The notes under the pieces are model-generated. The model was not told where the DNA came from and ran no database searches. It saw only the letters and a program-made list of their open reading frames with translations. Positions 106-50,403 of a stretch of 55,800 nucleotides of DNA are shown here, piece after piece. The DNA is from an uncultured archaeon (lineage in GTDB: Archaea > Aenigmatarchaeota > Aenigmatarchaeia > GW2011-AR5), in contig CAYJMB010000001.1 of the NCBI GenBank assembly GCA_964371455.1, forward strand, positions 1-55,800, written 5' to 3'. Both the position numbers and the translations under genes were made by a program. Numbering within the stretch: the first letter of the stretch is position 1; each line of letters starts with the position of its first letter.

Positions 106-121
106 ATATATATAAATATAA
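106..121 (+). promoter_or_regulatory. TATA-like A/T block, candidate archaeal promoter for the blaI-like operon
   Basis: atatatataaatataa lies about 25-38 nt upstream of the ATG at 144. This spacing fits an archaeal TATA box driving a leaderless or short-leader mRNA. Confidence 0.35.
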
Positions 122-143
122 TCTGTCCCAAACTCTGATTGCT

Positions 144-2020: not shown

Positions 2021-2108
2021 ATTCCTTAATAGTATAGTTATTAAATTTAAGCCTAATTGTTAATAACTTCTGGCTCTGCTTTAAATATACTTTATTAACA
2101 ATAGAATT

Positions 2109-2492: not shown

Positions 2493-2503
2493 TTATTTGG
2501 CGT

Positions 2504-3325: not shown

Positions 3326-3493
3326 GATATTTCTTGTGAAAGGCGCTATAAATTACTAATTACTATCAATCCTCAGACTTATCTGTTTGATATAGGTGTC
3401 CTGGTTTGCCGTCAGAATATTCTTTCACTAATTTGAACCTGCCATAACCTGAAGAGCGAATCCTTTAAGTTCTTTTCTGCGACATTCTTTCAG

Positions 3494-4531: not shown

Positions 4532-4536
4532 TAGTT

Positions 4537-4665
4537 ATGGGCGTTGCGGTGACTGATAGGTTCGATGAGAGAAGGATTGAAGCGGGCCGTGAGGATTATA
4601 AAAAGATGGAACGTGCACTGTACTATGATGAAAGGCGGCCTGAAGTTTATGGGGTTGTGATATGA
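4537..4665 (+). CDS. Possible 42-codon small ORF (MGVAVTDRFDERRIEAGREDYKKMERALYYDERRPEVYGVVI)
   Basis: Hand-translated and below the ORF-track cutoff. Its amino-acid composition is balanced, and its TGA overlaps the ATG of the next 42-codon ORF (ATGA at 4662-4665). Confidence 0.25.
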   Translation: MGVAVTDRFDERRIEAGREDYKKMERALYYDERRPEVYGVVI

Positions 4666-4790
4666 TGGCCGAGCTGACTACGCGTGAAATTTCTTTCGTT
4701 GGGAAAATAGCTAGCGGGAAGAAATTGCGGGCACAAGAAATAGGCGAATTGCTGCAGCAGAAATGGTATGTAGATGTGAAAATGATGTGA
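4662..4790 (+). CDS. Possible 42-codon small ORF (MMAELTTREISFVGKIASGKKLRAQEIGELLQQKWYVDVKMM)
   Basis: Hand-translated and coupled to the preceding small ORF. It may contain a short helix-turn-helix-like stretch. I recognise no family. Confidence 0.25.
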   Translation: MMAELTTREISFVGKIASGKKLRAQEIGELLQQKWYVDVKMM

Positions 4791-9439: not shown

Positions 9440-9529
9440 GATACAATGATGCGCGTGCGGCTTATTAAAAACATATGGGATGATATCTATAGCATCTGCC
9501 GCAAATAACCTTAAGCAGTTAGGGTTTTC

Positions 9530-35936: not shown

Positions 35937-36632
35937 TCACTTTCTTGCTTTTATTATAAATATCATGGCAAATCTGTCAGGCACTGTATTGGCGAGCCGT
36001 ATTTTCAAACCAAAAGGAAGAAGGTGCAAGCCATACGCTACTGTATGTATACAGAATTTTTTAATGCTTTTAAGCTTAATCATGTCTTTGATTGTTTCTT
36101 TTTCAAGGAAGCCTGGCGTATATTCAATTTCTTTTACTTTCAGGCCTGCATCTTTTAAAGCCTGCAGTGCATCGGTAAGATACCATCTTTTTTTATGATG
36201 GACACCGTCTGCCGGCAGGTTTGGAACACCGAGTACCAGCATGCCACCTGGCTTGAGGCATTTTCTTATCTGCCTGAGCATGCTCACAGGTTTTTCTATA
36301 TGCTCAATTGTCTCAAAACAGATAACAATATCAAATGAGTTTTCACGCACAGGATACCTGCCCTGCACATCTGACTGGATTGTTTTGAAGCCGCGTCGGC
36401 GTGCTTCTGTTAAACCAGATTTTGATATGTCCAACACAGTTGCTTTTTTCACACCCAGCCATTCAAGAAACTGCCCATTGCCACCGCCAACATCAAGAAC
36501 CTTAAGATCATCAGAAGGCTTGATAAAACCCTTGATGTGGCTATAGCGCAAGTCGTAGTAATCCATACCGCGCTGTATGTGTTCCTCTTCCCAATAATGT
36601 TCATAATATTTTTCGTAATCAAAGTGTTTCAT
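35937..36632 (-). CDS. Class I SAM-dependent methyltransferase
   Basis: It has the motif I sequence VLDVGGGNGQFL and DIVICFETIEHI. Confidence 0.75.
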   Translation of the reverse strand: MKHFDYEKYYEHYWEEEHIQRGMDYYDLRYSHIKGFIKPSDDLKVLDVGGGNGQFLEWLGVKKATVLDISKSGLTEARRRGFKTIQSDVQGRYPVRENSFDIVICFETIEHIEKPVSMLRQIRKCLKPGGMLVLGVPNLPADGVHHKKRWYLTDALQALKDAGLKVKEIEYTPGFLEKETIKDMIKLKSIKKFCIHTVAYGLHLLPFGLKIRLANTVPDRFAMIFIIKARK

Positions 36633-37356
36633 TCTTCAGCACCACAAAGGCTTCCCTGAGTGTCATGAACTCTACTTTTAGTTTCGCTAAATTTTCTATC
36701 AAATCTTTAAATTTCGCAAAATTTTTGTACTGATGATAGGCATGCAAACCGAGAACAAATATGCCATTTTTGGATGCCACGCTCTTGATGATGTAGTTTT
36801 TTATGACAGAATAATCGTCTTCGTTCACGTCCATCTGCCACTGTCTGGGCAGGCGCAGCCAAGGTATCTCGTAAAGTGCGCCAAAATGCATGAGCTTTTT
36901 TACTGGATAAAATGTGCCTATAGAAGAGTCCAAGACAAAACCCGCATTTTTTACATTTTCTATTGATTGTTTATCCTTTGATGTCCATGGAAAACGCCAT
37001 GACTTGACGTTACCATCGTACATGCTAAGTTCTTTGTAGCACTGCAATGCACTCTGATAATTTTTCTCCCTTTCTTCTCTGGAGTGAGAGATGCTATGAC
37101 CCCCTATTTCATGCGCCATTCCCACCAGCTGCTTAATAATTTCTGGCTCTGTCTGGTTGATGGTAAGAAAGAAGGTTGCCGGAATATTCTTGGATTTCAG
37201 ATATTCTGCCAATTCAATGCTTTTGCTGTCCACGTAGTCATCAAATGTCAACACAACGATTTTTCTTTTGGTCTGTCTGGAGAATTTGTAGGCCGGGTAT
37301 CCTGACAGCCTCTTGAAAAAGAAATATGCCCTGATGAACACAGGACTCACCACCAT
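36619..37356 (-). CDS. Polysaccharide deacetylase (NodB/CE4-like)
   Basis: It has VVLTFDDYVDS (TFDD motif) and GGHSISH (His motif). Confidence 0.7.
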   Translation of the reverse strand: MVVSPVFIRAYFFFKRLSGYPAYKFSRQTKRKIVVLTFDDYVDSKSIELAEYLKSKNIPATFFLTINQTEPEIIKQLVGMAHEIGGHSISHSREEREKNYQSALQCYKELSMYDGNVKSWRFPWTSKDKQSIENVKNAGFVLDSSIGTFYPVKKLMHFGALYEIPWLRLPRQWQMDVNEDDYSVIKNYIIKSVASKNGIFVLGLHAYHQYKNFAKFKDLIENLAKLKVEFMTLREAFVVLKNETL

Positions 37357-38396
37357 GCAACCTGCGCGGCGCGATAAAGCTTACTACAACCCCGGCACAG
37401 AGCAACTTTGTCACCCATTTTCTGCTGGTGCAAATCTCTTATTTTAGAATAGAGTTCCCCGTTCCATACTTCGGATAAACTCCGTTTGCTGGCGTCGCCT
37501 AAAATAACCTTTCCGTCAAAATCCACACAACATAATGCGACTTTCCCGCTGCTCAGCACAATCATTTCATTCCACAAGCGCCTGCAGGGATAGACGATTT
37601 TTGATCTCTCCACCTCAAGCTCACCCTCGTGCCCTTCCCCCTCCCTGTTGTCAACAATACCGAAATCATATCCATCTACTATGCCATCCCAGAGATTCTT
37701 GAACAAATCAAGCTCATGATAGTTCTCCTTCTGAATCGTACAGTTGACTTCGATCATTGGCTCTACCATACCGTGCCTATTTCTCTCCTCCACCAAATTC
37801 CTTATGTTAGATACGACTACATCAAATTTCCCATTGACACGGATTTTCTCATAAGTTTCCTTTGTTCCGCCGTCGAAACTGAATATAATTTTATTGGGAG
37901 GGTTTGCAAGAAGCTTGTTAATCTTTTCACTGTTCAGGACAGTGCCATTTGAGTAAAACATGACATACATATCCTGGCCCCTCACGAAGCTTATGCGCTC
38001 AAAGATCAGGTGATCGAGAAACGGCTCGCTGTAAAAAGAGAGTATTATTGTGTTTACACCCATTTTCTTCGCGTCAAGCACGATCTTCTTGAATAGTTCC
38101 ATAGGCATGACGGTCTTCTGCCGTGTCATGTCCTTGTACGGACACATAATGCATTTCAGATTGCAGAGGTTGAATGTTTCTATGGAGATCGCCTGCGGGA
38201 TCTGGACATCCTTTAGAACAGCATTTATCCTTCTTGTGTATATCTTGTCGTATGCAATGTAAAACGGGTACCTGTTGATCAGTGCAAACATAAGTTTTTT
38301 CAGGCTGTAATGGTTGTTCGCAAACTGCTTGAAGGAATGATAGAGTTTTTGCATAATAATCACCAATTTCTCGCTAAATGGGCAACATATAATCAC
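37347..38396 (-). CDS. Radical SAM enzyme with SPASM/twitch-type C-terminal Cys-rich domain
   Basis: It has CNLKCIMCPY (CX3CX2C). The C-terminus has CCVDFDGKVILGDASKRSLSEVWNG...CRGC. The real start is possibly M15 (38354). Confidence 0.75.
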   Translation of the reverse strand: MIICCPFSEKLVIIMQKLYHSFKQFANNHYSLKKLMFALINRYPFYIAYDKIYTRRINAVLKDVQIPQAISIETFNLCNLKCIMCPYKDMTRQKTVMPMELFKKIVLDAKKMGVNTIILSFYSEPFLDHLIFERISFVRGQDMYVMFYSNGTVLNSEKINKLLANPPNKIIFSFDGGTKETYEKIRVNGKFDVVVSNIRNLVEERNRHGMVEPMIEVNCTIQKENYHELDLFKNLWDGIVDGYDFGIVDNREGEGHEGELEVERSKIVYPCRRLWNEMIVLSSGKVALCCVDFDGKVILGDASKRSLSEVWNGELYSKIRDLHQQKMGDKVALCRGCSKLYRAAQVAWW

Positions 38397-38522
38397 TAAA
38401 TGGAATAGACTTAAAAATCAATGTCTCCCTGTATATTATAAAGGCTTTTTGGGGCGAACAATGAACTAAATGCAAAACAAAGTTTCCAACTATTTTTAAC
38501 CTTTGCTGTGCAGTGAATTCCA

Positions 38523-39287
38523 ATGACAAGATTAAGCGCGATAGTACTCACGCACAATGCGAGCGGCACGATAAAGGACGTGCTAGCGCAGCTGGACAAA
38601 GCCGCCGACGAAATAATCATAGTGGACGATAACAGCGACGACAACACAACAGAGATCGCCAGAAAGCTAGTACCCAAAGTGAAAATAATAAATCACAAAC
38701 TCACCAACCACGGGGAGCAGAGGAATATAGGCTACGCACATGCAAGCGGAGAATGGCTTGCATGGGTAGATGACGACGAGATATGGGATGACAACCTCGT
38801 AGAGGAAACCAAAAAAATAAAGGAGCTTGACGGGTACGGATACGACGGCTTCGAGTTCCTGTTCAAAACGCCGGTCCTCGGGAATGTTGTCGAGGATGAG
38901 TGGCATATGCGTTTATTCAGAAAAGGGAAAGGGAAAAATACCTCCGCTTTCCATACAACGGTTGAAATGCTACCAGGCTCCAAAATAAAGCGGGTAAGAA
39001 ACGGGCATGTACTGCACCTGACATGGCATGGAGTGGAGCCGTGGCTCAGGAAGCATATATTTTACTCAAAAATGGACGCCGACAGCTACCTTGAGCGCGG
39101 GCTGAACGTCAGCCCCTGGAAAATGATTGGCATGTTCTTTTTCGTATTCTTCAAAAGGCTCCGGCTTGCAAGGTTCGGCATATCGGGAATCACATGGGCA
39201 TTCGCGGCGAGCACTTCGTGGCTTTTCAAGGCGTGCTTTTTGGTCGAGGCGCGGCAAAAGAGAAAACAGCGAATAAGAGCTAAGTAA
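38523..39287 (+). CDS. GT2-family glycosyltransferase (small, WaaE/KdtX-like size)
   Basis: It has LSAIVLTHNASGTIKDVLAQLDKAADEIIIVDDNSDDNT and DDDE. Confidence 0.75.
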   Translation: MTRLSAIVLTHNASGTIKDVLAQLDKAADEIIIVDDNSDDNTTEIARKLVPKVKIINHKLTNHGEQRNIGYAHASGEWLAWVDDDEIWDDNLVEETKKIKELDGYGYDGFEFLFKTPVLGNVVEDEWHMRLFRKGKGKNTSAFHTTVEMLPGSKIKRVRNGHVLHLTWHGVEPWLRKHIFYSKMDADSYLERGLNVSPWKMIGMFFFVFFKRLRLARFGISGITWAFAASTSWLFKACFLVEARQKRKQRIRAK

Positions 39288-39363
39288 TTTGGGGATTTAC
39301 ATGAGAAGTTGGTTCAGTTGTCACTAACATGAGCTGTCAAGTCTTTTGGATATAAATTCTTAA

Positions 39364-39678
39364 ATCCCGTTAGAACTAAATGACGAGCCTCTATGTAATA
39401 GAGGCGTATTCCCGTTTCTAGTTGGAGATAAAGGCACGAAGTTACGTGTTGACGCATATTTTCGTAATTTTAATCTTGTTGTAGAATACGACGGAAAACA
39501 ACATTTTGAAGATGTCAAAAATATGAATAGAAGACCTGGAAGAGCAGAACAGAGAAAAAGGTATGACGAACTAAGAAATAACTTTGCAAAAGAAGGAAAA
39601 TATAAGCTCATACGAGTTTCTTACAAAGAATCTTTAACATTAGCGAGTCCTACAATCAGCTTTACCGAAAGTCAATAA
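39364..39678 (+). pseudogene. Start-less PD-(D/E)xK (Vsr/DUF559-like) nuclease fragment
   Basis: The hand-translated open frame runs from just after the stop at 39361-39363 to the TAA at 39676-39678. It reads ...LRVDAYFRNFNLVVEYDGKQHF...RYDELRNNFAKEGKYKLIRVSY.... There is no ATG/GTG/TTG start before the nuclease core. Confidence 0.45.
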
Positions 39679-39693
39679 CTTTACAGCTTACGG

Positions 39694-40686
39694 CTATTCA
39701 ACAGCCCCAAGCTGCCTTAGCGCATTTGAAAACGGCAGTCTGCTTCTAGAGTACGCTCTGGCTAATTTCTTGAAAGTCGTTGCAAGTGTTTCATGTTTTA
39801 CAACAAAGCGCGAGAAGCGGTCAAATAAGGGAGTGAAAATGAAATAACCCTTCAGGTAGTAATTGCGCCTGAGCTTGTGAAGGACGTCAAGGGTTTTCGC
39901 GTACTCGCTGACTTTTACTTTTGTCGGTGTTCCTTTCTTTGCAAAGAGCCTTACTGAGGAGCCGCGAACAAGCTTAACAATATCGAAGCCGTTCATCTTG
40001 AGAACAGCAGACAGGGTTGCAGGAGAATAGTAATAAGGATGCGCAATGTCGCAGCTTTGTTCAAATCGGCCATAGAATTCATGCACATTAGGGACTTCGA
40101 TATACAAAATGCCATCGTCGGCAAGCAGGTTGCGCAGCTTCCTGAGTACTGAATGCGGGTCTGTTATGTGCTCAAAAACATGAACAAGCGTTATGAAAGA
40201 GTACTCCTTGTGAATTCTTGCTTCTTCTAGAAGTACCGGAATTATTTTAATACCGAATTTCTTCTTCCCGTGATCTGCAAAGGTTTTTGTGGGTTCCAGG
40301 CCTTCTGCCTGCCAACCCATTTGACTGAACTTATATGGCAGGTAGCCCGCAGAGCAGCCGATATCGAGGTACGATTTTATTTTTAGTGTCCTTAGGTCTA
40401 CCGACCTGATAAAAAAGTCTGTTTTTTCCTCTGCGCCGCGGAGACTTCTCTCGTCAAGGGCTTGTGTAGGCTTTTCTGTCCCGCTTGCCAGTTTTCTGTA
40501 AGCTGGAGACGAGTAGAACTTGGAGTATTCATTTTTCGTCATTCTTGGATTCAGGAAAACAAGCCCACAATTTTTGCATATTACTGTATTTGCTTTAATT
40601 TTTTTATTCTTTGTCCTCGTTTCTAGGATTTCGTTCTTGTCAGGACCAGAACCGCAAAGAGCACATGAAACAGTTTCCATGATCAT
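39694..40686 (-). CDS. Class I SAM-dependent methyltransferase with N-terminal zinc ribbon
   Basis: It has a CALCGS...CKNCGLVFLNP zinc ribbon, the motif I sequence YLDIGCSAGY, and ITLVHVFEHI. Confidence 0.75.
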   Translation of the reverse strand: MIMETVSCALCGSGPDKNEILETRTKNKKIKANTVICKNCGLVFLNPRMTKNEYSKFYSSPAYRKLASGTEKPTQALDERSLRGAEEKTDFFIRSVDLRTLKIKSYLDIGCSAGYLPYKFSQMGWQAEGLEPTKTFADHGKKKFGIKIIPVLLEEARIHKEYSFITLVHVFEHITDPHSVLRKLRNLLADDGILYIEVPNVHEFYGRFEQSCDIAHPYYYSPATLSAVLKMNGFDIVKLVRGSSVRLFAKKGTPTKVKVSEYAKTLDVLHKLRRNYYLKGYFIFTPLFDRFSRFVVKHETLATTFKKLARAYSRSRLPFSNALRQLGAVE

Positions 40687-41540
40687 ACCATCTTTTTCAA
40701 ATAAGAAAAATATCGGACAATTGAATATTTCAATGCGTAATATATGAAAGGCCCTTTCAGGTGCAGGTACTTGCGCAAAAATTTGTAGTGCTTTTTCCAG
40801 AAATATATGTTATTCTTAAATAGCGAGAATTCTATCTCTATTTTTTTCTGCGTCCTGCAGCCGCCTGCCCGGCTCAAATAGTTAAGATGCCACACAAATG
40901 CCTTGTTGCAAAAGACTATCTTGAAACCTGCTTTCAGCGCTGAAACATACAGATCTGTTTCCTCCCTGTGGTAATTGCCGCCTATTTTTTCGTCGTAGCG
41001 CAACTTACTAAAAACGCTTCTGCGGAACAGCGCAAAGGGCAAAAGGGTATGAATGGGAATATTCCTGCCCAGGTCAACAGAGAAATTGACGTCTGTGGGG
41101 TAGCAGATGTAGAGATCCTTGTCTGCAGTTCTTTGCGCCCTTTTCATGGCAGAAGCTTTAGTTTCTCCTTGGTACACGAAAATCTGCCTGCCGCCTATGA
41201 TATCTGCGTTCTCTTTTTCCATGTTTTCCATAAGGATTGCAACATAATCCGGCGTGAATTCGACGTCGTCCTCGCCGAAGATTATGAAGTCGCCGGTTGC
41301 ATGAGCAATGCCGTAATTCCGCGCCCCCGGCAGTCCGAGCCTTTTTTCAGGGGAGAGATATTTTATTACCTTGTGATTTTTTATGATGTCTTTAATGTCG
41401 TTGAAGGCAAACCCGCCGTCGTCCACAATGATGATTTCCTTTACAAACTTCTGATTCAGATAAGAAGGCAATGTATTCTTGATAACATCCCCTCTTTTGT
41501 ATGTTGGAATAATGATGCTTACTGTTTTCATGCCGACCAC
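40683..41540 (-). CDS. GT2-family glycosyltransferase
   Basis: It has VSIIIPTYKRGDVIKNTLPSYLNQKFVKEIIIVDDGG and EDD. Confidence 0.75.
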   Translation of the reverse strand: MVGMKTVSIIIPTYKRGDVIKNTLPSYLNQKFVKEIIIVDDGGFAFNDIKDIIKNHKVIKYLSPEKRLGLPGARNYGIAHATGDFIIFGEDDVEFTPDYVAILMENMEKENADIIGGRQIFVYQGETKASAMKRAQRTADKDLYICYPTDVNFSVDLGRNIPIHTLLPFALFRRSVFSKLRYDEKIGGNYHREETDLYVSALKAGFKIVFCNKAFVWHLNYLSRAGGCRTQKKIEIEFSLFKNNIYFWKKHYKFLRKYLHLKGPFIYYALKYSIVRYFSYLKKMV

Positions 41541-41620
41541 AATAATTAAAGAAGCGAAAGATTCTTGTAGTCAAGCCATTGGCAGGAAACCATTTAAGTA
41601 TTACATATTCATACTTAGCT

Positions 41621-42337
41621 ATGAAAGATAAAATTGCGATTTCACTCAGCAAAGATATTATAGAAAAGATAGACAGAAAAATAGACGGCACAAATATCCG
41701 CAGCAGAAGCCAGGCTATTGAGGTTCTTATTAAGAGAGGGCTCATGGCAGAGCATGTGGACACAGCTGTTTTGCTGCTCAGCCAGATGCACTCGCATATC
41801 CCTCTAATGCTCTTCAAGTCTTCTACTGTGTTAGATCAGCAAATAGAATTCCTGAAGAAGAACAGGATAAATAATATATACATTATAGCTCAAGGAAATC
41901 TGAACACAGACAAGGCTGTCGTGATAAGGACAAAAGAGGCGAAAAACGGAGACGCATTGCGCCAGGCAAAGAATATCGCAAAAAATAATTTTATAGTTAT
42001 GAGCGGCGACATATACACCAACTTTAATCTTACTGACATGGTCGCCAAGCATGTTAATTCAGGCAAGCTCGCGACAGTGGGGCTTATAAGCTCGGCTACA
42101 CCATCCAAATATGGAACTGCTGTGCTGGAGGGCGACTTGGTTGCTGCTTTTGCAGAAAAACCAAAGCGTCCTGTATCGCATGTCATCAATGCAGGTATTT
42201 ACATTTTCAGCCCCGAAGTTTTCAGCATTATGAAGGGTTCGATAGAGCGAAATGTCCTGCCAGAGCTGGCGAAAAAGAAACAACTGGTCGGATATTTTGC
42301 TACAGGCGAGTATGTACATTTTGGAGAGAGGAAATAA
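41621..42337 (+). CDS. Ribbon-helix-helix (CopG-like) domain fused to a degenerate sugar-phosphate nucleotidyltransferase-like domain
   Basis: The N-terminus KIAISLSKDIIEKIDRKIDGTNIRSRSQAIEVLIKRGL is an RHH. The remainder aligns with NTP-transferase folds (GDALRQAK, MSGDIYTNF, SKYGTAVLEGD..AFAEKPKRP..HVINAGIYIFSPEVF). The G-x-G-T-R-L loop is replaced by LLLSQMHSHIPL. The ATG at 41621 is preferred over TTG 41579. Confidence 0.55.
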   Translation: MKDKIAISLSKDIIEKIDRKIDGTNIRSRSQAIEVLIKRGLMAEHVDTAVLLLSQMHSHIPLMLFKSSTVLDQQIEFLKKNRINNIYIIAQGNLNTDKAVVIRTKEAKNGDALRQAKNIAKNNFIVMSGDIYTNFNLTDMVAKHVNSGKLATVGLISSATPSKYGTAVLEGDLVAAFAEKPKRPVSHVINAGIYIFSPEVFSIMKGSIERNVLPELAKKKQLVGYFATGEYVHFGERK

Positions 42338-42358: not shown

Positions 42359-43429
42359 CTATAACTTTACCAAATCCTTGGATGCTTCTATAACATCTTC
42401 TACTTTCAGATTCTTCATGTGTTCATGATTACATTCTGGAAACTGGGCGCGAAATGGCAGGATGCATGGGAGGCCGCTGTCTTTTCTCAGACTGACGCAG
42501 TGCTGACCATAAGGGCCAAAGCGTTCCGGTACGTTGGGGCCGAAGAGCCCTACAGTTGGGATACCCATGGCAGCTGCTATGTGCATGGGGCCGGAGTCAT
42601 TGGCTATCACTAATTTCATTTTTGAGAATAGGTACGCAAGCTCATTAATGGAAAGATGGCCGCTAAGGTCTTTTATTCTGTTTCTATACTTACAGAGGCT
42701 GATGATTCTTTTGTTTATGTCCTTTTCATTTTCAGCACCAACCAGATAAACAGCCCAGCCCCTGCTTGCGAAAAAATCACAGATCTTTGCAAAATTCTCC
42801 TCAGGCCATCTTCTTGTTGTGGATGTAGATGCAGAGCCTGCATGTATGGCCAGAGCGTTTTGCTGAAATTTTATTGCGGACGGTTTGGAGAATACCGGGA
42901 CAAGCGCTTTTGGGGCAGGAAAGTACGAAAAAGCGGAAAATATCCTGTAAAAAGACAGCACTGCATGTTCGTTCTCGTTAATTTTGACCGAGCACGTGTA
43001 GAGATGACGGCGATTGTCGAGGCCATAGCGTTTCTGCGCGCCAGAAAGAGCGCTGAGCACAGCAGAGAATTTCATATATGGATCTGCATCAATTGCAACA
43101 GAGAACCGGAATTTTCTTATGGACAATATTGTTGAGATGGCTTTGAAGGGATTAGTGAAATTAAAGACAACAACCTCATCTATGAATTTCTGATTTTCAA
43201 AAACTGCTTTGTTCTCCTCGGTGCAGATTACTGTTATTGTATGGCCTTTATCTTTTATGGCTTTGATGCATGGCAACACTAAAACACTCTCGCCAATTGC
43301 CCATAGTTTTATGATGAGGACATTTTTGTTCGCTGCATTATTTTGCAAGAATGGCAGGAGCAGCCAGCACAGCATATAAAGAAACATGCCAACATACCTG
43401 TCCAGCATACGCAAAATTTTTGGCTGCAT
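42359..43429 (-). CDS. GT9-family glycosyltransferase (heptosyltransferase-like), third copy
   Basis: It has NVLIIKLWAIGESVLVLPCIKAI and DLSGHLSINELAYLFSKMKLVIANDSGPMHIAAAMGIPTVGLFGPNVP. Confidence 0.7.
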   Translation of the reverse strand: MQPKILRMLDRYVGMFLYMLCWLLLPFLQNNAANKNVLIIKLWAIGESVLVLPCIKAIKDKGHTITVICTEENKAVFENQKFIDEVVVFNFTNPFKAISTILSIRKFRFSVAIDADPYMKFSAVLSALSGAQKRYGLDNRRHLYTCSVKINENEHAVLSFYRIFSAFSYFPAPKALVPVFSKPSAIKFQQNALAIHAGSASTSTTRRWPEENFAKICDFFASRGWAVYLVGAENEKDINKRIISLCKYRNRIKDLSGHLSINELAYLFSKMKLVIANDSGPMHIAAAMGIPTVGLFGPNVPERFGPYGQHCVSLRKDSGLPCILPFRAQFPECNHEHMKNLKVEDVIEASKDLVKL

Positions 43430-43433
43430 AACA

Positions 43434-44219
43434 TCATTTCCCGTCTGGAGAAGGCGGAGGAATTATCAGATTATCGTGCGCCAACTTGTTTGCCTCTTCG
43501 TATGCCTGTAGCGTGCCGATGTCTATCCAGAATGTTATCTTTTCTGTAAAACCGGCAAGCTTACCTTTTGCAGCAAGCAAGGGGAAAAGACTATCCTCTA
43601 TTTTGATTTCCCTGTCCTCTACCAGCTCTTCTACTTCATCTAATTCAAGAATATAGTACGCAGCGTTTGCCAACAGCGATTCAGGAACACGGGGCTTTTC
43701 AACGAATTTTTCTATCAGCGTAAAGCCGACCTCTTTTTTGATATTGGCTACCCCAAGGCGCTTTGCATTCTCTTCCGTGACTTCAAACAAGGCAACAGTT
43801 GCTGATGTGCCCAGGGCAGCGCGGCATTCTTTATGATAATCCAGCAGATCGGCTACGTTCACGTCAGAAAGGCTGTCCCCATAGGCGACGACAACAGGAC
43901 CTGATTGCAGGCCGCATTCTCTTAAAACTTTTTTTAAATCACCTGCTGTTTCTTTCTGTTCTGTCCTGACCGTCCTGATTGCTCCGCTGTATTTCTCACC
44001 CAGATACTTTTCTATGCAAAAGGCCTGGATTCTGGATAATTCATCTATGTTGCCTGCTATTGCCACTATGATTTCGTCTATTTCGCTGCTTTTTTTCAGG
44101 TTGCCTATGACCCAATCTATGATGGGAACACCTTTCACGGGGAGAAGAGGCTTAGGCACTCCATAAGTAAGCGGCCGCAACCTTGTGCCCTTGCCTGCAG
44201 CAAGAATTATAGCTTTCAT
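43434..44219 (-). CDS. Sugar-1-phosphate nucleotidyltransferase
   Basis: It has the canonical loop MKAIILAAGKGTRLRPLTYGVPKPLLPV, then YGDSLSDVN and EKFVEKP. Sugar specificity cannot be determined from the sequence. Confidence 0.8.
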   Translation of the reverse strand: MKAIILAAGKGTRLRPLTYGVPKPLLPVKGVPIIDWVIGNLKKSSEIDEIIVAIAGNIDELSRIQAFCIEKYLGEKYSGAIRTVRTEQKETAGDLKKVLRECGLQSGPVVVAYGDSLSDVNVADLLDYHKECRAALGTSATVALFEVTEENAKRLGVANIKKEVGFTLIEKFVEKPRVPESLLANAAYYILELDEVEELVEDREIKIEDSLFPLLAAKGKLAGFTEKITFWIDIGTLQAYEEANKLAHDNLIIPPPSPDGK

Positions 44220-44510
44220 CTAACAACCTCCAGCACCAAATCTCCGAGCGTTTGGAAAATGAATGTTCATGTATTTACTGCATCCCTTTAGGGCAGTGTC
44301 TTTCGACCATATCTCTTCTATTTCAGAGGCTTTTGATTCGCTGTGAACGCCAATAGCCAGCTGAATAGTGTTGTCAAATAATGCAGCAAAAAGTGAGATA
44401 ATCGGTGATAGTGGAGACGTTGTTGCGTTACGTATCCCCAAATCAACTATTGCTTGCTGGGCTGCTTGTTCTGTGTAAGTTCCTTGAGGCCCGAGGTATC
44501 CTATCTCCAT
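44220..44510 (-). pseudogene. Prephenate-dehydratase-like relic (96 codons)
   Basis: MEIGYLGPQGTYTEQAAQQAI matches the PDT N-terminal signature (xxxYLGPxGTFxxxAA). The product is far too short, and it lacks the catalytic TRF region and the ACT domain. It is wedged between ugd and the NTP-transferase gene. Confidence 0.35.
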
Positions 44511-44514
44511 ATAA

Positions 44515-45819
44515 TCACCAGCAAACTCCTTCAGAACCTGAGACCTGCGCCTTGTCAAGGATGCAGCGGCCTTCTATGATGATTTTATTTTTCATAGAAG
44601 AAAAGTCGCTGTCCGCAAGCTCAGAAAATTCTTCCCATGCCGTCAGGATGAGACAGGCGTCTGCACCTTCTAGGGCTTCTTTTATAGAACTGACGTACTT
44701 TACAGTAGGAAATATCTTTTTCATGTTTTCATTTGCGAGAGGATCGTAAGCATAGATGATGGCATTTAGCTGGCGGAGCTCGCGGATGGTGTCAATAGCA
44801 ATAGAATCCCGGACATCGCCTGTGTTTTCCTTGAACGCCAGACCAAGAAGGGCTATCTTTTTTCCTGCAGGATTGATTTTGGTTTTCAGGATCTCTATGA
44901 TCTTTCTTTTCTGGATTTCGTTTGCTTTCATAACTGCGTCCAGCACATACGATGGCTCATTTTTCTCCCTGAAGAGAGAAGTCAGGGCCGAAATGTCCTT
45001 TGGGAAGCAGGAGCCACCGAAGCCGCAGCCTGCATTGAGGAAATAGGGGGATATGCGCTTGTCGTAACCCATACCGCGCGCAACTTCATAGATGTCAATG
45101 CCAAGCTTCTTGCAGAGGTTGCCCAATTCATTGATAAATGTCACCTTGGTTGCGAGGAATGCGTTAGACGCGTACTTTATCATTGCCGCTGTTTTTAGAG
45201 ACGTCCGCATGACAGGCGCGCCGAAATCCGCGTAGAGATTTTCAATGACATCGCCACTTCTTTTGTCAAATTCGCCAATGACGATGCGGTCCGGGTTCAT
45301 GAAATCGTGAAGAGCGAAACCCTCGCGCAGAAACTCCGGGTTCATGGCGATGCCGAAATCTGTGCCAGCGCGCTTGCCTGATGCCCTTTCTATAATTTTT
45401 GCAGCCTCTTCTGCTGTGCCTGGGAGAACTGTGGATTTGATGCAGATGACATGGTAAGCATTTTTGGTTTTAATCGCAGCAGCAATAGCATCAGCAGCAC
45501 TGGCGATCTGGCTCACGTCTATGGACCCATCCGGCTTTGACGGCGTACCGACGCAGATGAACGTTATGTCCGAGTTCTGGACTGCGTGTGTATAATCGGC
45601 AGTTGCAAAAATGAGTTTTTTACCAAGCGCTTCCTTGAGGCTGTCTGCTATATTTTCTTCGTAGAATGGCGGAATGCCTTTATTTATGTCGTTGACTTTC
45701 TCCTCATCCCTGTCGATACAGATACAGCTGTGACCATGATGGGCGAGACCTAAAGCAGTGCTCAAGCCTACATAACCTGCGCCTACTATGGAGATTTTCA
45801 TGATTATCTTCTTTAGCAA
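44515..45819 (-). CDS. ugd: UDP-glucose/GDP-mannose dehydrogenase-family enzyme (UDP-glucose 6-dehydrogenase-like)
   Basis: It has KISIVGAGYVGL, a catalytic FGGSCFPKD motif and a C-terminal UDP-binding domain. The likely start is M7 (45801). Confidence 0.85.
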   Translation of the reverse strand: MLKKIIMKISIVGAGYVGLSTALGLAHHGHSCICIDRDEEKVNDINKGIPPFYEENIADSLKEALGKKLIFATADYTHAVQNSDITFICVGTPSKPDGSIDVSQIASAADAIAAAIKTKNAYHVICIKSTVLPGTAEEAAKIIERASGKRAGTDFGIAMNPEFLREGFALHDFMNPDRIVIGEFDKRSGDVIENLYADFGAPVMRTSLKTAAMIKYASNAFLATKVTFINELGNLCKKLGIDIYEVARGMGYDKRISPYFLNAGCGFGGSCFPKDISALTSLFREKNEPSYVLDAVMKANEIQKRKIIEILKTKINPAGKKIALLGLAFKENTGDVRDSIAIDTIRELRQLNAIIYAYDPLANENMKKIFPTVKYVSSIKEALEGADACLILTAWEEFSELADSDFSSMKNKIIIEGRCILDKAQVSGSEGVCW

Positions 45820-45906
45820 TAGATGGAACTTTTTTAAGCTTCGCTCCCTGCTTATATTTTAGGACAAAAAGTGAACTATATATTTGGATACTGTCAGTTT
45901 TTGGGA

Positions 45907-46434
45907 TCATAAATTAACAACCAGTTTTGCGGCGGCAAGCAGGTCATCAGCAACAGCATCAGGTTTAGTGCCTTCATAATTCACACCGTAGCCGGTTCGC
46001 ACAAGGATGGTTTTGCAGCCTGCGCGCTTACCCATCTCTATATCAAGGGGCTTGTCGCCTACGACATAAGAGTCAGACAGACTGATGCCGTAGTCTTTTA
46101 CAGCACTTTCTAACATACCTGTATTAGGTTTTCTGCATTCACAGAGATCTAAAGGATGGTGCGTACAGCAATATACCTCAGTTATATGACCACCTGATTT
46201 TTCTATTTCTGTTCTCATCCTGCTGTGGATGTCAAGAAGGTCTTCTTTACTAATAATGCCACGTGCAACACCGCTCTGGTTTGTGACAACAAATATCATG
46301 TAGCTGTTCTGCGAGAGCAAAGCTATTGCTTCTTTAGAGCCTGGCAAAAAATAAAATTCATTCCAACTTTTAATGTAATTTTCGCTTTCTCTATTTACCG
46401 TTCCATCGCGATCCAGGAAGACTGCTTTTATCAT
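45907..46434 (-). CDS. gmhB: D-glycero-D-manno-heptose 1,7-bisphosphate phosphatase
   Basis: It has HAD motif I (FLDRDGTVN), the GmhB-specific Zn finger and motif (CCTHHPLDLCECRKPNTGM) and VGDKPLDIEMG. The start at MIKAVFLDRDG (46434) is preferred over the track start at 46497. Confidence 0.8.
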   Translation of the reverse strand: MIKAVFLDRDGTVNRESENYIKSWNEFYFLPGSKEAIALLSQNSYMIFVVTNQSGVARGIISKEDLLDIHSRMRTEIEKSGGHITEVYCCTHHPLDLCECRKPNTGMLESAVKDYGISLSDSYVVGDKPLDIEMGKRAGCKTILVRTGYGVNYEGTKPDAVADDLLAAAKLVVNL

Positions 46435-46451
46435 GACAACACCATGTACAC

Positions 46452-47066
46452 TTACCTGTTGCTGTCTTTTGAGAAAATATCCTTTACACCAAGCCAAATC
46501 CAGTGGAGAAGTTCAAAGTAACTAATTTGAACATTCTGCGTATCACCAGAAGGAATTACTATGGCTATATCAGAACGACCCACAATTTCATGACTCAACT
46601 CACCGTTTCCAACAATGCCAATTCGGTAAATTCCCATACATTTCGCGAGATCCAGTGCTCTCCTCACGTTAACAGCTTTGCCGCTTGTGCTTATTCCATA
46701 GATCACATCACCTGCTTTACCCATCGTTCGTAGCTGATATTCAAAGGCGTGTTGGTCTCCGTAATCATTAGAGATTGCTGTGACAGAAGACGCATCCGTT
46801 AACGACAAAGAACGAAACATTACACCTTCATAAGGCAGCGTATCACGAAATTCTCCTGCAAAATGCTGGGAATCTGCCGCACTTCCCCCATTGCCGCAGA
46901 AGTAAGCAGCGCCACCTGACCGAAAAACATCTGCAGTCAATATAAGAGCTCTTGCCACTTGGTCAAAAACTCCTGCTTCTTCAAATGCACTTCTTACTTT
47001 TGTATGTGCCTTATATCTCCGTTTCAAATTTCCAATCAGCTCTTGATCTATCTCGCTATTTACCAT
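46452..47066 (-). CDS. gmhA: Phosphoheptose (sedoheptulose-7-phosphate) isomerase
   Basis: It is a SIS domain carrying the GmhA signature YFCGNGGSAADSQHFAGEF, and its 204 aa length fits. Confidence 0.8.
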   Translation of the reverse strand: MVNSEIDQELIGNLKRRYKAHTKVRSAFEEAGVFDQVARALILTADVFRSGGAAYFCGNGGSAADSQHFAGEFRDTLPYEGVMFRSLSLTDASSVTAISNDYGDQHAFEYQLRTMGKAGDVIYGISTSGKAVNVRRALDLAKCMGIYRIGIVGNGELSHEIVGRSDIAIVIPSGDTQNVQISYFELLHWIWLGVKDIFSKDSNR

Positions 47067-47392
47067 CTAACCATCTCCTCTGTTCTTCCAGAAAATATTG
47101 AATTGGCCTGTCGTCTTTTGGGTACAATCGTGTCAATTCGGGTCCAATGCCCAAGTCTTTCAGTACTTTTGTCGTTAGTTGCTACAATTAATATTCCTCC
47201 GTTAGCGTGTCGCTGCAAGAACTCTTTTGCCTCTTCCAAGGCATTTGCGTGATGTGGTCTCACTGGATTGAAAGTGCCTACAGCTATTCCTGATTTCTTT
47301 CCTCGTTCCTTATAACTAGCAATTAATGTTCCAGCCTTATACAGGCTTATTACTTTTTCCATTTGCATACACTTCCAGTACCTTTTCAACAA
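47060..47392 (-). pseudogene. Truncated, degenerate paralogue of the adjacent heptose-1-P adenylyltransferase (cytidylyltransferase fold)
   Basis: IAVGTFNPVRPHHANALEEAKEF...ILIVATNDKS parallels the neighbour's VTTNGCFDILHIGHVRYLAEAKKL...VLMVGMNSDVS. However, the HxGH motif is RPHH and the C-terminal half is missing. It overlaps both flanking genes. Confidence 0.35.
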
Positions 47393-47837
47393 TATTTGTT
47401 GTAGACTTGCCTTCTGTTTTTGGGATCAGCACGACTTTGCCGCCTGCCTTTTCCACAGCACCTTTTTCTACACAATCCTTGATGCTATAGTCCCTGCCGC
47501 TGGCCTTGACGTGAACATCTGGCTTGATTTTTTCTACCCACTTGTTTGGCGTTTCGTCATCGAAAAGGAAAACGCAGTCTACTGATTTTATAGCATTGAG
47601 CATTTCTGCACGTTCTCTTTCCGGTATTATTGGCCTCTTCTCGCCTTTGAGCTTTCTCGCCGATACATCAGAGTTCATTCCCACCATAAGAACATCTCCC
47701 AGCTTTTTGGCTTCTGCCAAATAGCGGACATGACCTATGTGCAGAATATCAAAACAGCCATTTGTGGTAACAATCTTTTTACACTGCTTTCTACACTTAT
47801 CTGCGATTTTTATTGCTTCTTTCAAAGAGACGATCAT
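47337..47837 (-). CDS. hldC: D-glycero-beta-D-manno-heptose 1-phosphate adenylyltransferase (RfaE/HldE domain II type)
   Basis: It has the cytidylyltransferase signature TNGCFDILHIGHVRYL, GMNSDVSARKLKGEKRPI and a C-terminal KSTTNIVEKV. Confidence 0.8.
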   Translation of the reverse strand: MIVSLKEAIKIADKCRKQCKKIVTTNGCFDILHIGHVRYLAEAKKLGDVLMVGMNSDVSARKLKGEKRPIIPERERAEMLNAIKSVDCVFLFDDETPNKWVEKIKPDVHVKASGRDYSIKDCVEKGAVEKAGGKVVLIPKTEGKSTTNIVEKVLEVYANGKSNKPV

Positions 47838-47841
47838 TTAA

Positions 47842-48885
47842 TCACCAATTTTCCCAACTGTTATCAACAATTTTGCAGCCCTTTTTCAACTCGGCGAGAA
47901 GTTCTCTAGTTGTTAGTGTCTGTGTTCCGGATCTTCCAACAACAACACTTGCTGCATAATTTGATATAACTGCGGACTCACGCATACTGGCACCAGACAG
48001 GACAGCTGATGTAAACGCACTTGTAACTGTATCACCAGCTCCTGTGACATCCTGGACCTGCTTGTTATCTTTAATTGCACTAATTTGGACAAATCCTTTA
48101 GCGTCGTACAAAACCATACCCTCAGACCCTTTTGTTAGCAGCAAAGCATCTATGCGCTCGTTCTGCAATATACTGCGCGCTGCAATATGTTCTGGCATAC
48201 GTCTGTATCCATTGTGCCTTGCCATCTCTGACAAGTTTGGTTTCAAGAGTGTTGCGTTTCTATACTTTGAGAACTCGGCTTTCGGATCAACCGCGACAAA
48301 TTTACCTTGTTTTTTCGCTAAAGAGATTACATACTGGCACAGTCGAGGCGTGACAAAACCTTTGTCGTAGTCAGAAACGATCACCCCGTCAACATCGGCG
48401 ATTATTTTTTTTACCTTTAACATAGCGGATTTTTCTACCTTAGATGAAATCGGTTCTGTGTCCTCAGTGTCATTTCTGAATATATGCTGATTCTCACTTT
48501 CCGGCCAATTAAGCTCTTTTAAAATGCGCTCATCTACGCTAGTTGCTATCCCTCTTTCTTTTAATGTAGTCTTTCTTTTATTATCCACAATGAAGAGCGG
48601 CTCAATCCCACATTCTTTTATTTTTTGCTGCAAATACAACGCATTTTGGTCTTTCCCAATGACTGAGCAAAGATAAACAATGCCGCCGAGTGCTGCAACA
48701 TTTGCTGCAACGTTACCACAACCACCAGGGCTGTATACATCCCGCTCCCTTTCCAGTATGGGAATATTAGCTTCCGGAGAGCGCCTGCGCACGATTCCAT
48801 AAATTGTATGGTCTAACATCACATCGCCCACGACCAGTACAGAATGCCCGGGCATAGCACTCACAATGCTAACATAATTTGTCAT
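47842..48885 (-). CDS. hldA: D-glycero-beta-D-manno-heptose 7-phosphate kinase (RfaE/HldE domain I type, PfkB family)
   Basis: It has VLVVGDVMLDHTIYG, GGCGNVAANVAALGG and a C-terminal DVTGAGDTV ribokinase-family motif. Confidence 0.75.
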   Translation of the reverse strand: MTNYVSIVSAMPGHSVLVVGDVMLDHTIYGIVRRRSPEANIPILERERDVYSPGGCGNVAANVAALGGIVYLCSVIGKDQNALYLQQKIKECGIEPLFIVDNKRKTTLKERGIATSVDERILKELNWPESENQHIFRNDTEDTEPISSKVEKSAMLKVKKIIADVDGVIVSDYDKGFVTPRLCQYVISLAKKQGKFVAVDPKAEFSKYRNATLLKPNLSEMARHNGYRRMPEHIAARSILQNERIDALLLTKGSEGMVLYDAKGFVQISAIKDNKQVQDVTGAGDTVTSAFTSAVLSGASMRESAVISNYAASVVVGRSGTQTLTTRELLAELKKGCKIVDNSWENW

Positions 48886-48979
48886 ACTTTTTCATACTTT
48901 ATTAGTCTTTAAATACGTTGTGGAGCAGGGAGGCAATTTTCATAAAAGGTTTATTAGGCAGGCAGAGCCATGTAAATGT

Positions 48980-49591
48980 ATGAGGATTCTCAAGTCTTTC
49001 CCTGTTCAGGACAAGAAAACAGAGCAGGTGTCCAAGGTTTTTGATGCCGCGATAACTAAATTTGACTATCCATGGAGATTTGGCAGAATGGAGCTGCACC
49101 TCAGGGACGAAAACAAAGTCATGGCAAACGAAGAGGCGGGCATAATTGTTCTGGACTACAACGATGTCTTTATTCAGGCAATGGATGCCAAAGGGACTGC
49201 TGTCCTTATAATGAGGGCGCTATTCACGTTGATTACAAGAGAGATCTGCGGCAGCTTGCCCACTGTTATAGAAGATATTATTGCCAACAGAGAGATGATC
49301 AGGCAGGGATATGGCGACGCGCTTGTTTACTACTACTACCAGAAAAATATCAGTGAGCCAAGGCCATCCACCGCGGAAGATGATGTGCCCTGGCTGAGTT
49401 TCTACATCGATGACAGATACAATTCTGATTTTTTCAGACAGCAGAGAAAAGATAATAATGGGGCAGGAGATATGAACAATCTTGTAGAATGCCTCAAGCA
49501 AGACTTAACAGACAGAGACAAGCTAGGTACGGCGCTGCGCGTTTACTATGCGCTTAGAAAAGAAAAATTGCTCGTGTCAGGACTCGTGTGA
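48980..49591 (+). CDS. Hypothetical protein, no recognisable motif
   Basis: About 203 aa counted from ATG 48980 (the track ORF begins at GTG 48920). Its stop overlaps the GTG of the next ORF. Confidence 0.4.
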   Translation: MRILKSFPVQDKKTEQVSKVFDAAITKFDYPWRFGRMELHLRDENKVMANEEAGIIVLDYNDVFIQAMDAKGTAVLIMRALFTLITREICGSLPTVIEDIIANREMIRQGYGDALVYYYYQKNISEPRPSTAEDDVPWLSFYIDDRYNSDFFRQQRKDNNGAGDMNNLVECLKQDLTDRDKLGTALRVYYALRKEKLLVSGLV

Positions 49592-49596
49592 GGACC

Positions 49597-50403
49597 ATGC
49601 AGATAATCAAATATAAATGGGAGAACTGGAGGCCGCACTTCATTTTAAGGGATGAAGACGCGTTGGAAAAACTCGCACTGCTTGGCAGCGATGTCAGTTT
49701 CCACATTGGCAAGAAGCTGTGCACAGGCTTCGTGCGTGATGGCAAGCACTCCCCCTGCAAAAACAGGCGAGAAACAGAGGATATGTGCAACGAGTGCAAG
49801 CTTGAGGATGAATATTTCTTCTGCATACGGTGCGACGGCTCTGAATGTATAAACAGGAAAAAAAGAGACGAGTGCAAGAAAAATTATTATTATATTTACC
49901 TTGCTGCATTCGGACCATTGCTGAAAGTAGGTGTCTCACATGAATTTCGGTTGCTGGAGAGGCTGGTGGAGCAGGGGGCAGACTTCGGGGCGAAGATAGC
50001 AAGGGTGCAGGATGGCAAGCTTGTCAGGGCTATGGAACAGGAGATTAAGAAAGAGATAAAAATTGCTGACAGGATAACAGGCGAGCAGAAGTTTAGCACG
50101 CTTTTCGGGAACCCCAACGTTGCTGTTGCAAACATTTACAGGGCTATTTCTCTTCTGAAAACAAACGGGTTTGCCAAGCACCTGTCAGGGCCTGAGGTTT
50201 ATGATCTGAGGGAATACTATAATCTGCAGAATGTTATGTCACAGCCGCAAGAGATGGCAGTGCAAGAAGGATTGGACATTGCGGGCCGCGTGGTTTCTGC
50301 CAAGGGCAACCTGATAATCCTGCAGAAAGAAAAAATGTTCTTTTCTGTAAATGCGCACAGGCTGGTGGGCAGGGAAATAATACCATCAACGATTGTAATT
50401 TAA
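49597..50403 (+). CDS. Cys-rich (zinc-ribbon) protein, DUF2797-like
   Basis: It has Cys clusters (CKNRRETEDMCNEC...CIRCDGSEC). These are followed by YYIYLAAFGPLLKVGVSHEFRLLERLVEQGADFGAKIA, which resembles my recollection of DUF2797. Confidence 0.4.
   Translation: MQIIKYKWENWRPHFILRDEDALEKLALLGSDVSFHIGKKLCTGFVRDGKHSPCKNRRETEDMCNECKLEDEYFFCIRCDGSECINRKKRDECKKNYYYIYLAAFGPLLKVGVSHEFRLLERLVEQGADFGAKIARVQDGKLVRAMEQEIKKEIKIADRITGEQKFSTLFGNPNVAVANIYRAISLLKTNGFAKHLSGPEVYDLREYYNLQNVMSQPQEMAVQEGLDIAGRVVSAKGNLIILQKEKMFFSVNAHRLVGREIIPSTIVI

Follow-up and report, generated by a model that had tools for sequence, protein, structure and literature searches.

What is the function of a protein that carries a DNA-binding domain of the ribbon-helix-helix (RHH) type in front of a sugar nucleotidyltransferase fold from which the catalytic loop has disappeared? 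The question is raised by a gene in a 55,800-nucleotide stretch of DNA from an uncultured archaeon of the Aenigmatarchaeota (GenBank assembly GCA_964371455.1, contig CAYJMB010000001.1, positions 1 to 55,800), which was analysed as a whole and is referred to here as the window. The gene lies among genes for sugar metabolism and glycosyl transfer, and the original prediction proposed that a pseudo-enzyme had been recruited as the ligand sensor controlling this glycan island. Our analysis points to a one-component repressor of ADP-heptose biosynthesis and heptosyl transfer, which would be autoregulated and would sense a heptose metabolite through its pseudo-enzyme domain, a reading that we put at a probability of roughly 60%. 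Its parts differ in strength. It is very probable that the protein is a DNA-binding regulator of the heptose genes, the balance tips slightly toward the sensing of a small sugar metabolite, and it is doubtful that this metabolite is ADP-heptose itself.

The fusion is not an artefact of assembly or gene calling, since three independent assemblies contain the identical protein, none of the best 120 homologues is truncated and the RHH segment is conserved. A search of 5.8 billion proteins gave 382 matches, the best 120 of which measure 235-289 amino acids (aa) and align over 97% of the query or more; their named sources are Aenigmarchaeota, Woesearchaeota and Nanoarchaeota, so the same domain fusion is found elsewhere in archaea. 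In a scan with one genome per species, relatives were present in at least 255 species-level genomes, and all relatives' records with a phylum name are DPANN. Many records of metagenome-assembled genomes (MAGs) carry the label “uncultured Methanosarcinales archaeon,” which was not relied on; in gene order and operators, the loci so labelled agree with those of Woesearchaeota and Nanoarchaeota. A TTG in frame at 41579, upstream of the ATG, is unlikely as a start because homologues open with M-x-K-x-K-I-A-I-S-L, and this shared opening places the start upstream of the RHH, the fusion therefore being translated as one protein. The conserved ATG thus leaves the fusion standing.

The N-terminal RHH claimed at the outset is supported by a profile match (RHH_1, PF01402, aa 7-39, E 1.5e-5) that scores 25.2 bits vs. 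a curated Pfam cut-off of 20.5. The RHH segment is the best-conserved part of the protein, with R27-S-R-S-Q-A32 invariant in 77/77 sequences. In an AlphaFold2 (AF2) monomer model built from 30 family sequences, helices span residues 11-20 and 29-43 and the invariant R-S-R-S-Q-A stands at the start of helix B; residues 1-10 are extended with no strand called (predicted local distance difference test, pLDDT, 67-78), as expected without a dimer partner. Aligned with the RHH of P. horikoshii NikR, the segment reaches an hhalign probability of 88%. Half of the family members searched (15 of 30) match RHH_1 with E no higher than 0.01. Among PDB sequences, the RHH part alone gave one weak match, again P. 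horikoshii NikR (E 0.93), and no RHH structure was returned for a profile of 20 RHH segments. The NikR models of NCBIfam score 14.4-17.5 bits vs. cut-offs of 83-175, and do so on the RHH part only.

The remainder of the protein is predicted to keep the nucleotidyltransferase fold. The AF2 model has a mean pLDDT of 88.2 and a predicted TM-score (pTM) of 0.80, with pLDDT above 90 through most of this domain and the linker at aa 42-44 as the sole low-confidence stretch. The top Foldseek matches in the PDB are the GDP-mannose pyrophosphorylases VTC1 and GMPPB (E ~4e-17, query-normalised TM-score 0.70), followed by GMPPA, RmlA, ST0452, AGPase and HddC, and a sequence profile search also matches eIF2B epsilon and gamma, which are non-catalytic uses of the fold. 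The Pfam match to NTP_transferase (PF00483; aa 31-209, E 1.8e-20, 74 bits) spans profile positions 23-193 of 245, leaving positions 1-22, which carry GxGTRL, unmatched. Alignment of the family profile with GMPPB and VTC1 begins at chain residue 25, after PKPL, and alignment with the paralogue encoded nearby at 43434..44219 (-) begins only past PKPL (25% identity, E 6e-9); the paralogue itself matches the profile from position 1 and carries AAGKGTRLRPLT...PKPL. Counting back from the alignment start, the enzymes' GGxGTRLRPLTxxxPKPL is replaced by LL-K-G-E-H-Q-x-x-A-L in the family and by LLSQMHSHIPL in the window protein; the remnant loop has the consensus KGEHQxxAL, with H57 conserved in 90%. 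GxG[TS]R occurs in 0/77 family members, so the loss of the nucleotide-binding signature that had been described for this one protein extends across the family. Established work on RmlA and GlmU-type enzymes has shown that the Arg and Lys of this loop are catalytic. A deletion of ~9 residues therefore removes both.

The motifs listed in the original prediction are all there, namely NGDAL, SGD (aa 128-130), EKP (aa 179-181) and NAGIYI (aa 190-195). Across 77 members, S128, D130, Y164-G165, E179, K180, N190, G192, Y194 and E209 are invariant or nearly so (A191, within NAGIY, is 97% conserved), and in the enzymes these positions line the metal and sugar-phosphate site. The first of the two acidic metal ligands is kept as D130, while the second is replaced by H233, a phmmer alignment setting GFWMDIGQ of GMPPB against GEYVHFGE. 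Three His residues, H57, H144 and H233, are conserved in the subfamily. NCBIfam models of the enzymes fall far below their cut-offs (HddC 28.2 vs. 300; man1P_GTase 59.2 vs. 440; Arch_glmU 64.3 vs. 292). We consider it likely, with good confidence, that the protein is catalytically dead, and the conservation pattern fits a domain that would still bind a sugar phosphate or nucleoside diphosphate (NDP)-sugar without nucleotidyl transfer. Databases label family members as NDP-sugar pyrophosphorylase family protein, mannose-1-phosphate guanylyltransferase or nucleotidyltransferase family protein, and these enzyme labels are probably wrong, given the missing catalytic loop.

If the protein binds DNA, where would it bind? 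In the 140 nt upstream of the family's genes, TTCATAC is found in 61 of 77 regions vs. 1.4 expected from shuffles, and GTATGAA in 44 of 77 vs. 0.55. Of 76 loci, 50 have a perfect copy of the 17-bp palindrome GTATGAA-N3-TTCATAC within 320 nt upstream, a number that rises to 66 when up to two mismatches are allowed. The remaining perfect 17-mers in the 1.14 Mb number 7, all further upstream in the same loci; those with flanks examined mark the beginning of a gene that is read divergently and have a TATA-like box next to them, and several such loci have another gene directly upstream of the regulator. Heptad density is 76-fold higher in the 200 nt upstream than elsewhere (10.4 vs. 0.137 per kb). 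Two kinds of site recur. Site A is a perfect palindrome by the divergent operon, just downstream of the B recognition element (BRE) and TATA box on that strand, and site B, between the TATA box and the regulator ATG, is a run of two or three heptad-like repeats at 10-bp intervals that ends in TTCATAC. The heptads occur in pairs or triplets at this 10-bp spacing, inverted at site A and direct at site B and at the second window site described below, and they stand at the regulator's own start in Aenigmarchaeota, Woesearchaeota and Nanoarchaeota. The heptad GTATGAA/TTCATAC contains the half-site GTATGA/TCATAC of the E. coli NikR operator, GTATGA-N16-TCATAC, although the spacing differs (PMC7055735).

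The window has two candidate operators, O1 before the regulator gene and O2 at the head of the heptose operon (Table 1). The centre of the TATA-like element before O1 lies ~26 nt from the ATG, which implies a leaderless regulator transcript with O1 between TATA and start. ATTTAAG is kept in four of five aligned upstream regions, the fifth (L001) differing by one inserted A. In comparison with four other upstream regions (three from Aenigmatarchaeota and one from a further MAG, whose site lies ~58 nt before its ATG), conservation is confined to the block from TTTAAGTAT to TTCATACT, the DNA being otherwise 49% identical. At O2, positions 48881-48899 read GTCATACTTTTTCATACTT and the hldA ATG (48885..48883) falls inside the first repeat. 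Three other Aenigmarchaeota loci have TCATACTTTTTCATACTT and the TATA box unchanged at the start of hldA, and TTAAATA is invariant in the upstream alignment of hldA loci. O2 stays with the heptose operon though the operon's promoter is 6.5 kb from the regulator and is no longer its divergent neighbour.

Which genes would be controlled? The window holds the full ADP-heptose pathway on the minus strand, and this string of genes ends 22 bp past the stop of the RHH gene. When the open reading frames (ORFs) of 80 family loci were searched with the window proteins, the neighbours within 10 kb were GT9 in 65 loci, HldA in 63, HldC and GmhB in 52 each, HldD in 43 and GmhA in 35. In the usual order, the minus-strand genes hldC, gmhB, hldA, (hldD) and an isomerase gene come first, followed by the plus-strand RHH gene and by GT9, again on the minus strand. 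Of 68 loci, 52 have the first enzyme of the pathway as the immediate divergent neighbour, either GmhA (27) or a small cupin-type isomerase (25). The GT2 glycosyltransferase gene is read divergently across the intergenic region 41541..41620, which is exactly 80 bp and agrees with the original prediction. As the main target it was rejected, being the divergent neighbour in only 2 of 68 loci and having no convincing TATA box relative to O1. The best-supported target is likely to be the operon for ADP-heptose biosynthesis and heptosyl transfer and not the GT2 gene. With this change of target, the original prediction is supported in every part open to computation: the RHH passes its profile threshold, the conserved start lies before it, the fold is kept while the signature loop is lost family-wide, and a conserved putative operator stands at the regulator's own promoter.

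The role of the fusion protein as an enzyme of this same pathway was also considered. One locus (L003), with no nucleotidyltransferase nearby, had raised the idea that the fusion protein is the pathway's missing nucleotidyltransferase. Of the 46 loci with 6 kb or more of upstream sequence, 39 encode the adenylyltransferase HldC, as does the window; the heptose pathway is therefore complete without the fusion protein, and the idea was rejected.

Table 1. Features of the window around the RHH/nucleotidyltransferase-like fusion gene (predicted functions; motif conservation is among 77 family members).
Feature	Position	Strand	Basis or remarks
RHH/NTP-transferase-like fusion gene	41621..42337	+	238 aa plus stop, ATG start; ORF list, Pfam, homologues
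Ribbon-helix-helix DNA-binding domain, aa 1-45	41621..41755	+	putative beta-strand K4-I-A-I-S-L9; helix B from R27-S-R-S-Q-A32
Sugar-1-phosphate nucleotidyltransferase-like domain, aa 46-238, predicted catalytically dead	41756..42334	+	Pfam, AF2, Foldseek
Signature-loop remnant, aa 54-62 SQMHSHIPL	41780..41806	+	alignments; ~9 residues shorter than the enzymes' GGxGTRLRPLTxxxPKPL
S128-G129-D130, counterpart of first metal-binding Asp motif	42002..42010	+	S128 and D130 invariant; G129 98%
E179-K180-P181, sugar-phosphate-binding Lys motif	42155..42163	+	E179 and K180 invariant; P181 90%
H233, at the enzymes' second metal-binding Asp position	42317..42319	+	invariant; W-x-D-x-G becomes G-E-Y-x-H
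Candidate operator O1, GTATTACATATTCATAC	41598..41614	.	copy of the palindrome with two mismatches; ends 6 nt before regulator ATG
TATA-like ATTTAA (putative)	41592..41597	+	directly before O1; centre ~26 nt before ATG
Candidate operator O2, two direct TCATACTT repeats 10 bp apart	48882..48899	.	GTATGA on hldA strand; head of operon
TATA box TTTAAATA of hldA operon (putative)	48909..48916	-	centre ~27 nt before hldA ATG
Predicted target operon, hldA to GT9 (6.5 kb)	42359..48885	-	Pfam; same genes flank the family in 80 other loci
hldA	47842-48885	-	PfkB
hldC	47337-47837	-	CTP_transf_like
gmhA	46452-47066	-	SIS_2
gmhB	45907-46497	-	HAD
UDP-sugar dehydrogenase	44515-45819	-	UDPG_MGDP_dh
Intact nucleotidyltransferase	43434-44219	-	NTP_transferase
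Heptosyltransferase GT9	42359-43429	-	Glyco_transf_9
Divergent GT2 glycosyltransferase, sharing the 80-bp intergenic region	40683..41540	-	Pfam Glycos_transf_2

The heptose loci hold several further observations. A cupin gene is first in the heptose operon at L011 9506-9862, L010 9448-9864, L021 9501-9869, L064 2032-2391 and L050 1722-2141 (all minus strand), and a cupin of 118-139 aa takes the place of GmhA (SIS) in this position in about half of the loci from Woesearchaeota and Nanoarchaeota. It is weakly similar to D-lyxose isomerase and mannose-6-phosphate isomerase, a Cupin_2 gene is also found at L001 13816-14226, and the cupin may be a non-orthologous replacement of sedoheptulose-7-phosphate isomerase. 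Upstream of the regulator and on the same strand, L028 has a glucokinase gene (8964-9998, +) with a 4-nt overlap and L030 has an EamA-family transporter gene (3819-4679, +) with a 2-nt gap; each is probably co-transcribed with the regulator. In the window, a 110-aa ORF between gmhA and hldC (47060-47392, -) weakly matches CTP_transf_like (E 0.0066) and is possibly a degenerate second gene of the HldC type; two HldC-like matches are likewise present in the orthologous locus L005. On the other side of hldA and divergent from it, 48920-50403 (+) encodes a 223-aa protein with no Pfam match and then a DUF2797 protein. The 34-bp promoter region with O2 is common to hldA and the 223-aa gene, and in L001 and L004, too, the heptose operon is followed by the 223-aa gene and the DUF2797 gene. 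In L003, the Woesearchaeota heptose operon adjoins a gene (1-4641, -) whose product exceeds 2360 aa and contains Hint and intein-splicing domains. Left of GT2, the glycan island of the window (35937-40686) includes a radical SAM/SPASM gene (37347-38396), a second GT2 gene and a methyltransferase gene, to which the orthologous stretch of L004 adds a B12-binding radical SAM gene, more methyltransferases and a polysaccharide deacetylase. The gene content of this island suggests an unusually modified glycan.

How might such a repressor work? A NikR-like RHH would dimerise and recognise the heptad TTCATAC/GTATGAA, with one RHH dimer per heptad and two or more dimers on one face of the DNA joined by the nucleotidyltransferase-like domains. 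A dimer of dimers or a larger assembly is suggested by the occurrence of the same heptad both inverted and direct at a 10-bp period. In archaea, recruitment of RNA polymerase is generally blocked when a factor occupies the DNA between the TATA box and the transcription start, and the protein would act in the same way on O1 and O2. As the candidate operators all lie between TATA and start, we propose repression both of the regulator's own gene and of the heptose operon. The C-terminal domain, which would derive from a sugar-1-phosphate nucleotidyltransferase, is envisaged as binding a manno-heptose metabolite instead of catalysing. Among such metabolites we tentatively favour the end product ADP-heptose, which would act as a co-repressor, because end-product co-repression is the simplest logic for a biosynthetic operon, as in NikR and MetJ. 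Alternative ligands would be heptose 1-phosphate or heptose 1,7-bisphosphate, and the extra conserved His residues could bind an additional phosphate.

Three other explanations deserve consideration. The one that survives best, itself unlikely, is a regulator in which the enzyme-like domain is an oligomerisation scaffold, or a flux sensor that binds a partner enzyme as GMPPA does GMPPB. Nucleotidyltransferases of this fold are dimers or tetramers, which would suit multi-heptad sites with 10-bp spacing, and the Foldseek matches also include the non-catalytic GMPPA subunit and AGPase, with sequence matches to the likewise non-catalytic eIF2B epsilon and gamma. However, a scaffold would leave it hard to explain why D130, E179, K180, N190, G192, Y194 and E209, which line the enzymes' sugar-phosphate/metal site, are invariant. 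We regard as quite improbable a bifunctional trigger enzyme, that is, an active nucleotidyltransferase (for heptose 1-phosphate, for example) that uses a non-canonical site and also binds DNA like PutA, BirA and NadR. The retained SGD, EKP and NAGIY motifs and the weak matches to HddC, a heptose-1-phosphate guanylyltransferase, would agree with such an enzyme, as would two remote fusions (P0179 and P0201) that keep GGxGxRLxPLT..PKxL and match Pfam from position 1-2, P0179 being followed by a phosphomannomutase-like gene. Yet the loop with the catalytic Arg and Lys is ~9 residues shorter in all 77 members, a His stands in for the second metal-binding Asp, the NCBIfam enzyme models all stay far under their cut-offs (28 vs. 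300 for HddC), and with HldC encoded in 39/46 loci and in the window the pathway is already complete. Very improbable is the last explanation, in which the palindromes are bound by another factor or are promoter elements and the RHH is a protein-interaction or antitoxin-like module: in its favour, RHH_1 is significant in only half of the 30 family members, and searching the PDB with a profile built from the RHH part alone brings up no structure of that type. Against it, the repeats track the regulator gene, standing at its start in Aenigmarchaeota, Woesearchaeota and Nanoarchaeota, and they remain at the heptose operon even when it is 6.5 kb away. Their half-site agrees with the one of NikR, whose RHH is the closest, three GTATGAC heptads precede the regulator ATG in a remote fusion subfamily, and no toxin partner gene is present.

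It should be noted that some observations weigh against a ligand-sensing repressor. Within the window only, the 17-mer with up to three mismatches has 2 matches vs. 2.97 expected, which is not significant, and TCATACTT occurs 4 times vs. 1.82 expected (three of the four in the O1 and O2 promoters), a count that is not significant alone. Both mismatches of O1 fall in its left half-site, and another factor could in principle be the one that binds the palindromes. The catalytic loop is intact in some relatives, and a new catalytic arrangement may have formed on H57, H144 and H233. TTCATAC is likewise at chance level in the window (7 vs. 7.16 expected, not significant). As these motif counts are not significant, the case for the operators rests on the comparison of 76 loci.

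The proposed repressor can be set beside several known systems. NikR is a repressor with its effector as co-repressor, and it resembles the fusion protein in having an N-terminal RHH followed by a C-terminal domain for ligand sensing and oligomerisation. The RHH patterns are also alike, with [RK]-[VI]-x-I-[ST]-L...NRSEAIR in NikR and KIAISL...SRSQAIE in the fusion protein, and so is the operator half-site (PMC7055735). In contrast, the C-terminal domain of the fusion protein has a nucleotidyltransferase fold and not an ACT-like nickel-binding domain, its half-sites are spaced by N3 or form 10-bp direct repeats where NikR has N16, and its predicted target is a sugar pathway where that of NikR is nickel uptake. 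The fusion protein would therefore work like NikR but is not a member of the NikR family, because its sensor domain differs; the likeness is one of resemblance only.

The logic of the C-terminal domain has closer parallels elsewhere. NrtR (Nudix-like), PurR of B. subtilis (phosphoribosyltransferase-like), the ROK repressors (sugar-kinase-like) and SorC/CggR are enzyme-fold sensors, often catalytically degenerate, which are fused to a DNA-binding domain and regulate the pathway that makes or uses their ligand. These proteins have helix-turn-helix domains and other folds, and none of them is known to have an RHH or a sugar nucleotidyltransferase fold. GMPPA is an inactive paralogue of GDP-mannose pyrophosphorylase that has been reused as a feedback sensor of an NDP-manno-sugar product. 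It shares the fold, is among both the structural and the sequence matches, and the title of its PDB entry 7d72 describes a GDP-mannose-bound complex. Unlike the fusion protein, GMPPA acts allosterically on GMPPB, has a C-terminal left-handed beta-helix and is without a DNA-binding domain, whereas the feedback proposed here would act on transcription. As for the DNA code, the omega repressor of plasmid pSM19035 is an RHH protein that binds 7-bp heptads, direct or inverted, with one dimer per heptad. The fusion family likewise shows the same heptad in both orientations, but the omega heptads are contiguous (a 7-bp period vs. 10 bp in the fusion family) and omega has no sensor domain. PutA is described as a trifunctional RHH-enzyme fusion with an N-terminal RHH that autorepresses (PMC5293562). 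PutA, BirA and NadR each join a DNA-binding domain to an enzyme of the pathway that they regulate, as the fusion protein is proposed to do; their enzyme folds are unrelated to its own, and the enzyme part of PutA is active, whereas the window subfamily is without the catalytic loop and is predicted to be a pseudo-enzyme. Our literature search, which was not exhaustive, found no description of an RHH-nucleotidyltransferase regulator or of the regulation of heptose synthesis in archaea, nor an earlier report of a transcriptional sensor of ADP-heptose. A one-component regulator with an enzyme-derived sensor follows a known logic.

The window subfamily is part of a wider group. When 1.84 billion representatives were scanned in full, 182 proteins reached E 1e-30 or better; among the 150 listed, most match from the RHH to the C-terminus and ~17 are fragments of 107-227 aa. 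Matches to the hidden Markov model begin at profile positions 1-7 for nearly every full-length representative. Classed by approximate regular expressions, ~11 of the 133 full-length representatives have an intact GGxGxRLxPLT...PKxL loop, 7 a partial one and 115 have lost it in varied ways; a regular expression for the RHH misses many true RHHs and so was left unused. The intact-loop members match NTP_transferase from position 1-2 and occur in other sugar-gene contexts, and catalytic motifs are kept in the remote relatives P0179, P0192, P0201, P0213 and P0250. P0179 (L086 3394-4233) is followed by a phosphomannomutase-like (PGM/PMM) gene, and P0213 (L089 2598-3446) by a UDP-GlcNAc 2-epimerase-like (Epimerase_2) gene and a second nucleotidyltransferase gene. 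P0192 (L088 1216-2052) is a remote fusion with an intact catalytic signature. P0201 (L090 6001-6873) stands beside RmlC and a GHMP kinase, and its host is probably a bacterium, as the contig carries trigger factor and ClpP. P0179, P0213, P0201 and P0192 are candidate DNA-binding trigger enzymes, and remote relatives with an intact loop may work like enzymes of the PutA type. Heptads are also seen in this remote group. Upstream of P0213 there are three GTATGA[CT] heptads with a 10-bp period between the TATA box and the ATG (L089 2555-2600), and upstream of P0201, which has KVSISV as its beta-strand, there are two TCCTACTTTT repeats (L090 5968-5990). This hints that residues of the RHH strand co-vary with the heptad sequence, KIAISL going with TCATAC and KVSISV with CCTAC.

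Because some relatives have an intact loop, the ancestral protein was probably an enzyme, and the window protein looks like the end of a path from a DNA-binding enzyme to a pure sensor. At somewhat short of an even chance, the group would constitute a large, undescribed superfamily of RHH-nucleotidyltransferase regulators, found in DPANN archaea and in at least one organism with bacterial-type neighbour genes, which couples pools of NDP-sugars or sugar phosphates directly to transcription and ranges from active trigger enzymes to pseudo-enzymes whose catalytic loop was lost or shortened by many routes. The window subfamily would then be a repressor responsive to ADP-heptose or heptose bisphosphate with a DNA code of the NikR type. 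ADP-heptose is a precursor of the cell envelope and, in bacteria, an agonist of innate immunity. If the proposal is true, a protein specific for ADP-heptose that reports through DNA binding could serve as a biosensor. Metabolic reconstructions based on current database labels would count this regulator as an enzyme. DPANN archaea are uncultured or hard to grow and gene regulation in them is almost unknown; in this case the regulator, its operator, the operon that it would target and a few candidate ligands are all predicted from sequence alone. With their intact, half-decayed and deleted loops, the relatives of this protein offer a view of an enzyme becoming a sensor.

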